Position numbers and translations under genes: made by a program
From: Escherichia coli
GTDB taxonomy: Bacteria; Pseudomonadota; Gammaproteobacteria; Enterobacterales; Enterobacteriaceae
Direction: 5' to 3' (one strand)
NCBI RefSeq assembly: GCF_017348835.2
Contig: NZ_CP071375.1
Length of the DNA: 64,000 nt
Shown: positions 47,646 through 50,541 of the stretch, one piece after another
Layout: each line of letters starts with the position of its first letter
How positions within the stretch are numbered: the first letter of the stretch is position 1
Notes under the pieces: generated by a model
What the model saw: the letters and a program-made list of their open reading frames with translations, nothing else
The model's database searches: none
Told to the model about the DNA's origin: nothing

Positions 47646-47981
47646 CTACCCAATCAGTACGTTAATTTTGGCTTTAATGAGTTGTAATTCCTCTGGGGCA
47701 ACCGTTCCTTTCTTCGTTGCTCCTCTTGCCCGCCAGGCGATACTTTTTACCTGATCAGCTAACGCTACGCCATCACGTTCCTGACCGGATAAAACAACTT
47801 CGAACGGATATCCTTTTGATTGCGTTGTACAAGGAACACACAGACACATACCTGTTTTGTTGTTGTACATGAAAGGACTCAGGACAACAGCTGGACGATG
47901 TCCAGCTTGCTCGCTACCTTTTGTCGGGTCAAAATCAACCCAAATCAGATCGCCCATATCGGGTACGTATCGGCTTACCAT
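47646..47981 (-). CDS. mazF: Endoribonuclease toxin MazF
   Basis: 111 aa PemK/MazF fold, [19 protein letters not shown]. Confidence 0.95.
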   Translation of the reverse strand: MVSRYVPDMGDLIWVDFDPTKGSEQAGHRPAVVLSPFMYNNKTGMCLCVPCTTQSKGYPFEVVLSGQERDGVALADQVKSIAWRARGATKKGTVAPEELQLIKAKINVLIG

Positions 47982-48229
47982 TACCAGACTTCCTTATCTT
48001 TCGGCTCTCCCCAGTCGATATTCTCGTGGAGGTTTTCCGGCGTGATGTCGTTGACCAGTTCAGCAAGCGTAAATACGGGCTCTTTACGCACTGGCTCAAT
48101 AATTAATTTGCCATCCACCAGGTCAATCTTCACTTCATCATCAATATTCAGATTGAGCGCCTGCATTAACGTAGCCGGGATCCGCACCGCCGGTGAATTT
48201 CCCCAACGCTTTACGCTACTGTGGATCAT
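47981..48229 (-). CDS. mazE: Antitoxin MazE
   Basis: 82 aa AbrB/MazE fold; stop overlaps the mazF start. Confidence 0.95.
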
Positions 48230-48306
48230 AACCCTTTCCTCAAACCGCTATCATATGTAGATACAGTATATATCAATCTACATTGTAGATACGAGCAAAT
48301 TTCGGC

Positions 48307-50541
48307 CTAACTCCCGTGCAACCGACGCGCGTCGATAACATCCGGCACCTGGTTGAGTTTACCCAGCACGCGACCCAGCACCTGCAGGTTGTAAATCTCA
48401 ATGGTCATGTCGATGGTCGCCAGTTGCTGTTTGGTGTCGCTACGGCTGGCAACGCCAAGCACGTTCACTTTCTCATTGGCGAGAATGGTCGTGATATCAC
48501 GTAACAACCCACTACGATCATTAGCCACCACGCGGACCACCAGCGAATATCCGGCGGAGTAGCTCTCGCCCCATACCGCGTCAACAATGCGTTCTGGCGC
48601 ATGGGAGCGCAGTTCCGCCAGTTGTTCGCAATCGGCGCGGTGTACTGAAATACCGCGCCCCTGGGTAATGAAGCCGACAATCTCATCTCCAGGAATCGGC
48701 TGGCAGCAACGCGCGATGTGGTGCATCAGGTTACCGACACCTTCAACCACCACACGACCGTTATCTTTACTGCGGTTTTGCGGCGTGTAACTTTTTTGCT
48801 GAAGTTGCTTCAGCGCGGCGGCGTCCTGCTCTTCGGCACTCGGCTTATTAAATTGCGATTGCAGGAAGTTCACCATCTGATTGAGACGGATATCCCCGCC
48901 ACCAATCGCCGCCAGCAACTCGTCGACATCATTGAAGTTGTAACGCGGCAGCAGATGTTTTTCTGCTTCTTTCAGGCTGATCCCCAGATGTTCCAGCTCG
49001 TCGTCAAGGATTTGCCGCCCAGCCAGAATGTTTTTGTCACGGTCCTGTTTACGGAACCAGGCGTGAATTTTCGAACGCCCACGGCTGGTTGTGACGTAAC
49101 CGAGGTTTGGGTTTAACCAGTCACGGCTGGGGTTCGGCTGTTTCTGGGTGATAATTTCAATCTGGTCGCCCATCTGCAGCTGGTAGGTGAACGGCACAAT
49201 GCGCCCGCCAATTTTTGCCCCGATGCAGCGGTGTCCGACATCACTGTGGATGTGGTAAGCGAAGTCCAGCGGCGTTGATCCCGCAGGCAAATCAACGACA
49301 TCACCTTTCGGCGTAAAGACATACACCCGGTCGTCAAACACCTGACTACGTACTTCGTCGAGCATTTCGCCGGAATCAGCCATCTCTTCCTGCCACGCAA
49401 TCAGTTTACGCAGCCAGGCAATCCGGTCTTCATGTCCCGAACGTGCGCCGCCAGCAGCCGCGCCCTCTTTATATTTCCAGTGCGCAGCAACACCCAACTC
49501 TGCATCTTCATGCATCTGTTTGGTGCGGATTTGGATCTCAACGGTTTTTCCACCCGGCCCCAGAACCACGGTATGAATAGACTGATAACCGTTTGGTTTC
49601 GGGTTAGCGACGTAATCGTCAAACTCATCCGGCAGGTGGCGATAGTGAGTGTGCACTATCCCCAGTGCGGCATAACAATCCTGTAAACGCTCGGCGACAA
49701 TACGTACCGCACGCACATCAAACAGCTCATCGAAGGCGAGGTTCTTTTTCTGCATTTTGCGCCAGATGCTGTAGATGTGTTTCGGACGACCATACACTTC
49801 AGCTTTAACGCCTTCAGCTTTCATCTCAGCGCGCAGATGACCGACAAACTCTTCGATATAGTGTTCGCGGTCGAGACGGCGTTCATGCAACAGTTTTGCG
49901 ATGCGTTTGTATTCGGTCGGGTGGAGATAACGGAAGCAGTAATCTTCCAGCTCCCATTTCAGTTGCCCAATCCCAAGACGGTTTGCCAACGGCGCGTAGA
50001 TATTGGTGCACTCTTTTGCCGCCAGTACGCGTTCATCTTCCGGCGCATCTTTTACTTCACGCAGATGAGCAATACGCTCCGCCAGTTTGATGACCACGCA
50101 GCGAAAATCATCGACCATCGCCAATAACATCCGGCGAACGTTATCGACCTGTTCGGAGGAAACAGAATCAGTGTGCGTCGCTTTCAGTTGGCGGATCGCC
50201 GCCATATCACGCACGCCGTGAATAAGGTTAACGACCGACTTACCGACGCTCTCACGCAGCACATCTTCGCTGACTACGTTGGCATCCGCCAGAGGGAAAA
50301 GCAGCGCCGCCCGCAGCGTGTCAATGTCCATACTTAATGTCGAGAGGATCTCCACCATCTCAACACCACGCCACAATAACAGACTGGCATCCGGATGCCC
50401 CTGCGTCTGTTGCAGACAATACGCCCAGGTTTCGGCTAAGCACTCACACGACTTCTGGCTGGTAATACCCAGACTTGCGATCCATTTTTCCGGATCAAAT
50501 TCACCAGCCTTATTGATATGTGCACTTCTTACCGCAACCAT
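48307..50541 (-). CDS. relA: GTP pyrophosphokinase ((p)ppGpp synthetase I)
   Basis: 744 aa with synthetase, TGS and ACT domains. Confidence 0.97.
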   Translation of the reverse strand: MVAVRSAHINKAGEFDPEKWIASLGITSQKSCECLAETWAYCLQQTQGHPDASLLLWRGVEMVEILSTLSMDIDTLRAALLFPLADANVVSEDVLRESVGKSVVNLIHGVRDMAAIRQLKATHTDSVSSEQVDNVRRMLLAMVDDFRCVVIKLAERIAHLREVKDAPEDERVLAAKECTNIYAPLANRLGIGQLKWELEDYCFRYLHPTEYKRIAKLLHERRLDREHYIEEFVGHLRAEMKAEGVKAEVYGRPKHIYSIWRKMQKKNLAFDELFDVRAVRIVAERLQDCYAALGIVHTHYRHLPDEFDDYVANPKPNGYQSIHTVVLGPGGKTVEIQIRTKQMHEDAELGVAAHWKYKEGAAAGGARSGHEDRIAWLRKLIAWQEEMADSGEMLDEVRSQVFDDRVYVFTPKGDVVDLPAGSTPLDFAYHIHSDVGHRCIGAKIGGRIVPFTYQLQMGDQIEIITQKQPNPSRDWLNPNLGYVTTSRGRSKIHAWFRKQDRDKNILAGRQILDDELEHLGISLKEAEKHLLPRYNFNDVDELLAAIGGGDIRLNQMVNFLQSQFNKPSAEEQDAAALKQLQQKSYTPQNRSKDNGRVVVEGVGNLMHHIARCCQPIPGDEIVGFITQGRGISVHRADCEQLAELRSHAPERIVDAVWGESYSAGYSLVVRVVANDRSGLLRDITTILANEKVNVLGVASRSDTKQQLATIDMTIEIYNLQVLGRVLGKLNQVPDVIDARRLHGS

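Follow-up and report, generated by a model that had tools for sequence, protein, structure and literature searches.

A toxin-antitoxin pair located between relA and mazG raises the question of whether it is the familiar mazEF module in intact form or a damaged or misnamed relative. This question was addressed in the window, which here means the whole 64-kb stretch (64,000 nucleotides) of Escherichia coli DNA that was analyzed. Judged from its sequence, the locus very probably (about 96%) represents the canonical chromosomal type II toxin-antitoxin (TA) module mazEF (chpA) of E. coli, unchanged from K-12. Since the four proteins and the control region are identical to those of K-12, the module is intact yet already known. 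The first-pass annotation had called the locus unremarkable, and indeed the annotations of thousands of complete E. coli genomes show an identical four-gene order. As a well-studied and intact module with K-12-identical proteins and operator, mazEF serves here as a clean negative control, and K-12 knowledge of the stringent response and of MazF should be directly transferable to the source strain.

Gene organization

The arrangement and its associated elements are as follows.

48307..50541, minus strand: relA, GTP diphosphokinase ((p)ppGpp synthetase I), 744 aa; open reading frame (ORF), first gene of the arrangement
48230..48306, minus strand: relA-mazE spacer, 77 bp, with the mazEF promoter and operator region, assigned by K-12 identity
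48255..48290, minus strand: "alternating palindrome" operator with three arms, inverted repeats I1 and I2
47981..48229, minus strand: mazE, labile antitoxin and DNA-binding autorepressor, 82 aa; ORF, PDB, and K-12 identity
47981, minus strand: base shared by the mazE stop and the mazF start, TAATG at 47979-47983
47646..47981, minus strand: mazF, ACA-specific endoribonuclease toxin, 111 aa; ORF, PDB, and K-12 identity
47576..47645, minus strand: mazF-mazG spacer, 70 bp, with five differences from K-12
46784..47575, minus strand: mazG, nucleoside triphosphate pyrophosphohydrolase, 263 aa; ORF, last gene of the arrangement
46722..46776, minus strand: hairpin directly 3' of the mazG stop, fold -24.2 kcal/mol, z = -4.1
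47941..48340, plus strand: stretch homologous to aMEF (K-12 ameF, b4844), mapped from the K-12 annotation
23095-23247: hok-like gene, Pfam HOK_GEF

The claim of an intact relA-mazE-mazF-mazG arrangement is borne out by ORFs at the expected positions and by four proteins identical to those of K-12. All ORF coordinates lie on the minus strand, which places mazEF between relA and mazG in a single orientation, as had been proposed. The span originally given, 47646-50541, covers relA, mazE, and mazF and leaves out mazG, though the title of that claim names mazG. On the minus strand, mazE lies 5' of mazF, with the antitoxin first and the toxin second. The junction between them (...GTCTGGTAATGGTAAGC...) confirms the previously noted overlap at 47981, which can be read directly as TAATG; the overlap is a single base, the final A of the mazE TAA doubling as the A that opens the mazF ATG. 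Such a stop/start layout fits translational coupling and may reflect it.

Protein identity

All four proteins match NCBIfam equivalog models far beyond chance. RelA scores 1678 bits against NF008124 (cut-off 728) with coverage of residues 1-744 of 744, and MazF scores 227.4 bits against NF007386 (cut-off 120) over residues 1-111 of 111. The corresponding values are 196.2 bits for MazE (NF007312, cut-off 113) and 370 bits for MazG (NF007113, cut-off 208). Pfam assignments comprise HD_4, RelA_SpoT, TGS, and ACT domains in RelA, PF04014 in MazE (52.9 versus 24.7), PF02452 in MazF (84.8 versus 23.1), and PF03819 in MazG (134.5).

Reference alignment gave complete identity for both members of the pair. 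MazE equals chain D of PDB entry 1mvf over 82/82 residues and MazF equals chain A of 3nfc over 111/111, both crystallized as wild type, and the two proteins are identical to K-12 NP_417263 and NP_417262, respectively. This identity to the crystallized chains means that catalytic and all other residues are unchanged. Inactivating substitutions at the catalytic residues of MazF, named beforehand as the finding that would overturn the claim of an intact module, were absent from all 111 residues compared with the wild type. Residues E24, R29, and T52, which are assigned to the active site, are all present when read off directly. The E24A variant of MazF serves as an inactive control (PMC5888573), and MazF homologues cannot do without the corresponding Arg and Thr (PMC10893535). 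Across the locus proteins, no frameshift, premature stop, or substitution relative to K-12 was found.

Control region and transcript features

The relA-mazE spacer matches K-12 at 77 of 77 positions and contains the promoter palindrome that the first-pass annotation had proposed to look for upstream of mazE. The pattern ATCTACA-n-TGTAGAT-n13-ATCTACAT occupies 48255-48290. Its middle arm, TGTAGAT (48276-48282, also delimited as 48276-48283), can pair with ATCTACA (48284-48290, 1-nt gap) or alternatively with ATCTACAT (48255-48262, 13-nt gap). The 64-kb window has a single copy of this three-arm pattern, which is matched by 0 of 100 shuffles and is invariant in all three arms across nine diverse strains. 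Both PMC5888573 and PMC1626106 cite Marianovsky et al. 2001, the source of the name "alternating palindrome"; PMC1626106 also describes promoter P2 and its autoregulation. A consensus promoter scan returned two weak sites only (48254-48225 and 48126-48099), and shuffled sequences gave more. As the scan misses the published P2 and P3 promoters, it is uninformative.

No terminator-like structure separates relA, mazE, mazF, and mazG. A simple terminator scan of the minus strand found no such site after relA, and neither the relA-mazE spacer (z = -0.42) nor the mazF-mazG spacer (z = -0.35, without terminator-like structure) folds better than its shuffles. The hairpin downstream of mazG folds more strongly than any of 200 shuffles and likely marks the transcript end of the unit; the simple scan of the minus strand did not call it. 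An Rfam search of 46000-52000 gave no match at E <= 1. The presence of a structured RNA or of any known RNA family was rejected on account of this empty result and the shuffle-like folding of both spacers.

In K-12, the antisense transcript aMEF is about 400 nt long, with its promoter inside mazF; no Rfam family corresponds to it. The homologous interval was obtained by adding an offset of 43889 to K-12 segment 4052-4451; it runs from the 5' end of mazF across the whole of mazE and the spacer into the 3' end of relA. Between 47703 and 48373, with this stretch included, there are zero differences from K-12.

Comparison with K-12 and other strains

In K-12 MG1655, the corresponding genes are relA (b2784), mazE (b2783), mazF (b2782), mazG (b2781), and ameF (b4844). 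Gene order, strand, lengths, the one-base overlap, and the four protein sequences are shared, as are the 77-bp promoter/operator spacer and the entire aMEF-homologous stretch. The differences amount to 57 synonymous substitutions (44 in relA, 12 in mazG, and one in mazF) and five substitutions in the mazF-mazG spacer, whereas mazE has 0 nucleotide differences. The finding of 57 nucleotide differences with 0 amino-acid changes across four genes indicates purifying selection.

The sole mazEF difference lies at window position 47703, where MazF codon 93 reads ACG rather than ACA, a synonymous change also found in O55:H7, EC17CM12, and A3024. It leaves mazF with eight ACA sites, potential self-cleavage sites, rather than nine; mazE contains two. 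Published counts are two for mazE and nine for mazF (PMC5888573). The effect of losing one of the nine mazF sites is probably negligible. It is quite unlikely that the change measurably weakens post-transcriptional negative feedback and thereby alters MazF fluctuation dynamics in lineages carrying ACG.

Only 1/585 mazEF bases differ from K-12, compared with 56/3027 in relA and mazG (Fisher P = 0.0008). Among mazEF-bearing genomes, identity of at least 99% is reached by 86% over the cassette and by 9% over the whole region. Nevertheless, unusual conservation of the cassette relative to its flanks was rejected as unremarkable. The difference-free run over mazEF, at 670 bp, is the third longest in a 10-kb comparison that contains several runs of 500-800 bp. 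Differences in relA are patchy, with 23 inside one 500-bp bin, and this patchiness is the usual recombination mosaic. Across nine deliberately diverse strains, nucleotide diversity (pi) was 0.0147 for mazF, 0.0170 for relA, and 0.0159 for mazG, and segregating sites did not differ significantly (P = 0.065). MazE was identical in 9/9 of the strains sampled.

The genome of PE164 (NZ_CP114128.1), a pig isolate from Nanjing, carries a 3758-bp relA-mazG stretch that is 100% identical to the window, and its PGAP annotation names relA, mazE, mazF, and mazG. The two sequences share 99.998% identity over 44.5 kb and 99.955% over 13.5 kb, and every one of the handful of single-base differences lies outside the locus.

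Occurrence and the empty-site allele

Of 5426 complete E. coli genomes, 5425 contain both relA and mazG, whereas 4418 contain mazEF. The remaining 1008/5426 (about 19%) are without mazEF and retain relA and mazG. The presence/absence polymorphism of mazEF is already published, and the strain analyzed here has the majority, cassette-present allele. The absence of the pair from roughly 19% of complete genomes shows that the module can be dispensed with and leaves any host benefit unproven.

Genomes without mazEF, including ST131 and ETEC1748, have a 95-bp relA-mazG spacer with its own hairpin (GCTGGATAYGGC...GCCRTATCCAGC). This hairpin is strong, with a 12-bp stem and a U tract (dG -23.5 kcal/mol, z -5.0). 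In ST131 and ETEC1748, relA and mazG are direct neighbors in one orientation and match the window at about 98% identity; the final ~35 bp ahead of mazG (downward from about 47610) are common to both alleles. Where the window has the ~690-bp cassette, however, the empty allele carries ~55-60 bp of unrelated sequence. Simple deletion as the source of mazEF-less genomes was rejected on these grounds; an empty allele with hairpin sequence of its own means that the two alleles differ by replacement and not by clean deletion. An idea even weaker than the one on codon 93 is that the cassette replaced a relA-proximal terminator hairpin, so that relA termination and mazG expression would not be the same in mazEF-bearing and empty alleles.

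Alternative explanations

Two alternatives concern the identity and state of the pair. The genes could belong to a sister family, ChpBS or the plasmid-borne PemIK/Kis-Kid, and be misnamed mazEF. These systems resemble mazEF in having a PemK/MazF-fold toxin, an AbrB-type antitoxin fold, and a bicistronic organization; MazF and MazE additionally match the ChpB toxin and ChpS models, respectively, and PDB Kid is a distant match to MazF (E = 7.6e-9). However, the cut-offs of 129 bits (ChpB) and 101 bits (ChpS) are missed by far, with scores of 55 and 35, while both members of the pair score far above the cut-offs of the MazF and MazE models. Sister-family sequences are distant, fall below the family cut-offs, and occupy another genomic position (the chpB locus in the case of ChpBS), while the pair in the window equals K-12 MazE and MazF at every residue and sits between relA and mazG. 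A misnamed sister family is thus vanishingly improbable, its identity being refuted by the family-model scores. Alternatively, mazEF could be silently disabled, whether as a pseudogene, by an inactive toxin, or by a defective promoter. The sole kind of support for such a state is general precedent, namely the decay of other chromosomal TA loci, together with the IS-split hok and truncated cas genes of the window and the IS1 insertion at the mazE/mazF boundary of SW07163. Against it, the ORFs are full length, the proteins equal the active crystallized wild type, the promoter spacer is K-12-identical, and the single nucleotide change is synonymous. A disabled module is accordingly refuted at the sequence level and very improbable overall.

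A third view addresses what the module does, not what it is, and can stand alongside the canonical mazEF assignment. It holds that mazEF is a selfish insert, intact because it is addictive or recently spread, that no working link to relA or mazG exists, and that the operon is an accident of landing. The 1008 genomes that keep relA and mazG without mazEF point in this direction, as does the empty spacer with its hairpin and U tract, which indicates replacement instead of clean deletion. The GC content of the cassette (45.8%) is lower than that of relA (53.6%) and mazG (51.3%), seven E. coli plasmid records contain mazEF pairs that are distantly related, and a review argues likewise (PMC7167474). 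On the other hand, MazE is identical in all nine strains and the operator arms are invariant. Effects of MazG and (p)ppGpp on mazEF have also been reported, as cited in PMC7167474 and PMC1626106. Sequence data do not tell host benefit from addiction, and we regard a purely selfish insert as possible but doubtful.

Proposed mechanism

The physiological role of mazEF is disputed; the views put forward include programmed death, a reversible arrest of growth, the exclusion of phages, and a selfish insert. By analogy with the K-12 locus, MazF dimers would cut single-stranded RNA at ACA, and a MazE dimer would bridge and block two MazF dimers. MazE, alone or with MazF, would bind the palindrome and thereby repress promoter P2. 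MazE is expected to be unstable, being degraded by ClpAP and Lon, and this instability would free MazF once expression of mazEF halts. Cleavage of its own mRNA by MazF may add a second negative feedback, and antisense aMEF would increase MazE and MazF output about two-fold. The product of the downstream gene, MazG, would hydrolyze nucleotides and reportedly tempers the response. Published accounts cover ACA cleavage, the MazF2-MazE2-MazF2 complex, and self-cleavage (PMC5888573); ClpPA, P2 autoregulation, and the presence of mazG in the operon (PMC1626106); and the function of aMEF (PMC8749433).

Neighboring loci

The first-pass annotation had listed mazEF as the second TA-type locus of the window after a hok-like gene. 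The hok-like gene is real, as its HOK_GEF match indicates, but an insertion sequence (IS) seems to have split its locus: a remnant of ~1.1 kb lies between the gene and the sok region. Since this remnant separates hok from sok, hok is not a clean comparator. The contrast drawn between a decayed CRISPR-Cas locus and an undecayed mazEF proved right according to the annotation of the near-identical PE164. The module is thus the one TA locus of the window without sign of damage, while hok and cas have been hit by insertion sequences or deletion.

The cas operon in the window is of type I-E and is truncated. In the SW07163 genome, an IS1 element interrupts the mazEF locus at the mazE/mazF boundary.

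Gene organization and protein identity

The relA-mazEF-mazG locus is already known, and its arrangement is retained here. An ORF listing over 44-54 kb, together with a minus-strand reading, places four co-directional genes at the locus, with rlmD upstream and pyrG and eno downstream:

48307-50541, minus strand: relA, 744-aa ORF
47981-48229, minus strand: mazE, 82-aa ORF
47646-47981, minus strand: mazF, 111-aa ORF
46784-47575, minus strand: mazG, 263-aa ORF

The first-pass annotation had set mazE and mazF between relA and mazG on the same strand, overlapping by one base at 47981. 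The ORF coordinates confirm the former and the junction sequence, GTCTGGTAATGGTAAGC, the latter; the overlap arises because the final base of TAA is the initial base of ATG. The span assigned to the arrangement, 47646-50541, encloses relA, mazE, and mazF and leaves out mazG, which its title names.

Alignment shows all four proteins to be the same as those of K-12 MG1655. Full-length identity also holds against crystallised proteins: MazF equals PDB 3nfc_A at 111/111 residues (E = 1.9e-73) and MazE equals PDB 1mvf chain D at 82/82. The earlier statement that mazEF shows no decay is therefore correct, and the reading of the locus as unremarkable, known, and of low interest is supported. NCBIfam equivalog models recognize MazF at 227 bits (cut-off 120), MazE at 196 (113), RelA at 1678 (728), and MazG at 370 (208); the ChpB and ChpS sister models were rejected, with scores far under their cut-offs. 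Pfam domains comprise PemK_toxin, MazE_antitoxin, and MazG, with HD_4, RelA_SpoT, TGS, and ACT in RelA.

Comparison of MazF with K-12 revealed no inactivating substitutions, and E24, R29, and T52 are present. We take R29 and T52 to correspond to the essential residues of MazF homologues, a mapping that is immaterial here because every MazF residue is wild type. E24A is the standard inactive MazF control (PMC5888573), and homologues require the counterpart Arg and Thr (PMC10893535).

Control region and transcription unit

The 77-bp relA-mazE spacer is the same as in K-12 and contains the palindrome expected upstream of mazE, in three arms:

48284-48290: arm ATCTACA
48276-48282: middle arm TGTAGAT
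48255-48262: arm ATCTACAT

The middle arm has two possible pairing partners, one on each side. Together the arms form the "alternating palindrome" known from the P2 promoter of mazEF, as Marianovsky et al. (2001) is relayed in PMC5888573 and PMC1626106. The full three-arm pattern has a single occurrence in the 64-kb window, and 0/100 shuffles reproduced it. Across nine diverse E. coli strains the arms do not change, whereas adjacent spacer bases vary.

No terminator-like structure was found in the relA-mazE and mazF-mazG spacers (scan; folds z = -0.4), and a strong hairpin lies 3' of mazG at 46722-46776 (-24.2 kcal/mol, z = -4.1). Both features fit the published relA-mazEFG transcription unit, although in one study a mazEFG transcript could not be detected reproducibly (PMC8749433). 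The stretch homologous to the K-12 antisense RNA aMEF (b4844), mapped from K-12 annotation to the plus strand at 47941-48340, has zero differences from K-12. A roughly two-fold increase in MazE and MazF levels has been reported for aMEF (PMC8749433).

Divergence from K-12

Nucleotide differences from K-12 number 44 in relA, 12 in mazG, one in mazF, and zero in mazE, all of them synonymous; the mazF-mazG spacer carries five substitutions. Within relA, 23 of the 44 fall in one 500-bp bin (49500-49999), which suggests a small recombinant patch.

The mazEF cassette differs at 1/585 bases and its flanks at 56/3027 (P = 0.0008), as unusual conservation of the cassette would predict. That explanation was rejected: stretches of 500-800 bp without any difference are frequent in a 10-kb comparison with K-12, the relA differences are clustered, and mazF diversity resembles that of the flanks among nine diverse strains. 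The lower divergence of the cassette reflects an ordinary recombination mosaic.

Proposed mechanism and ACA sites

Because the locus matches the one studied in K-12, the following mechanism is inferred for it (PMC5888573, PMC1626106). MazF dimers would cut single-stranded RNA at ACA, and a MazE dimer held between two MazF dimers would block both. MazE and MazE-MazF would repress P2 at the palindrome. ClpAP and Lon would degrade MazE, so that interrupted expression would free MazF. MazF would also cleave its own mRNA at ACA sites, of which K-12 has two in mazE and nine in mazF, and the window two and eight. The window has one fewer because the sole mazF difference, at 47703, synonymously turns codon 93 from ACA to ACG, with loss of one self-cleavage site. 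ACG is shared with O55:H7 DEC5A, EC17CM12, and A3024, whereas K-12, UTI89, O104:H4, STEC435, and Z30 keep ACA. The physiological role of mazEF is contested among death, stasis, phage exclusion, and a selfish element (PMC7167474).

Presence and absence across E. coli

The relA-mazG region occurs in 5425/5426 complete E. coli genomes, but the cassette in only 4418 (blastn, 11-base words); the other 1008 lack it. This polymorphism is already published, with mazEF viewed as an insertion into the relA-mazG operon (PMC7167474). The cassette is AT-richer than relA (45.8% versus 53.6% GC). In genomes lacking mazEF, such as O25b:H4-ST131 and ETEC1748, the relA-mazG spacer is 95 bp (positions 1293-1387 in both L003, from ST131 MB1341, and L004, from ETEC1748).

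Simple deletion as the source of this empty allele is excluded by alignment of the two examples, in which about 690 bp of the window cassette (~47610-48306) aligns to 55-60 bp of unrelated sequence. Both also carry a hairpin (-23.5 kcal/mol, z = -5.0) that has a 12-bp stem and a U tract and is absent from the mazEF-bearing allele. Since the empty allele has its own sequence and hairpin, the two alleles are related by replacement and not by clean deletion.

UTI89 has been cited as a strain without these toxin-antitoxin systems (PMC7167474), yet its RefSeq sequence (NC_007946.1 3065213-3065796) does carry mazE and mazF between relA and mazG, with M9T in MazF; the published remark may be limited to yafNO. 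Real disruption of the locus is exemplified by one genome, SW07163, where IS1 lies at the mazE/mazF boundary (L005 3248-4238). It adjoins a rearrangement by which fucO and fucA have become neighbors, and mazF, mazG, and the rest of the region sit elsewhere in the chromosome.

The pig isolate PE164 (Nanjing; NZ_CP114128.1) has essentially the same sequence as the window: 100% identity at relA-mazG, 99.998% across a 44.5-kb stretch, and 99.955% across one of 13.5 kb.

Other loci in the window

The first-pass annotation had counted a hok-like gene as another toxin-antitoxin locus. The coding sequence exists, but the locus looks disrupted, because an IS pseudogene separates it from the sok match:

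23095-23247, minus strand: Hok/Gef CDS (Pfam HOK_GEF)
23309-24337: truncated IS "integrase core" pseudogene, between hok and sok
24335-24484, minus strand: sok match (Rfam)

About 60 nt remain upstream of hok before the pseudogene, and the locus (23095-24484) thus appears split. K-12 lacks the hok CDS and shares sequence only from 24336 on, the sokX/cysH side. Neither annotation nor Rfam yielded further toxin-antitoxin loci in the window.

The decay earlier ascribed to the type I-E CRISPR-Cas locus (16911-22752) is real, per PE164 annotation:

21539-22752: IS3, abutting cas3, with an ALIL pseudoknot at 21820-21936
18890-21550: cas3
17238-18800: casA
17137-17241: casB stub
16911-17165: cas2e
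40967-41301: separate orphan CRISPR array

Missing from that annotation are casC, casD, casE, cas1, and the adjacent array. The window cas3 gave no blastn alignment to K-12 cas3 at E <= 1e-5. A second IS3-family copy (~58440-59759), 99.6-99.8% identical to the cas3-adjacent one, interrupts gudP and leaves it as two pseudogene halves. PE164 annotation also records a frameshifted yqcE (~37.6-38.8 kb) and, in the rpoS-mutS variable region (2500-5400), a MarR-family regulator with hydroxyarylic acid decarboxylase subunits B, C, and D. The CsrB sRNA lies at 62360-62719 on the minus strand (383 bits).
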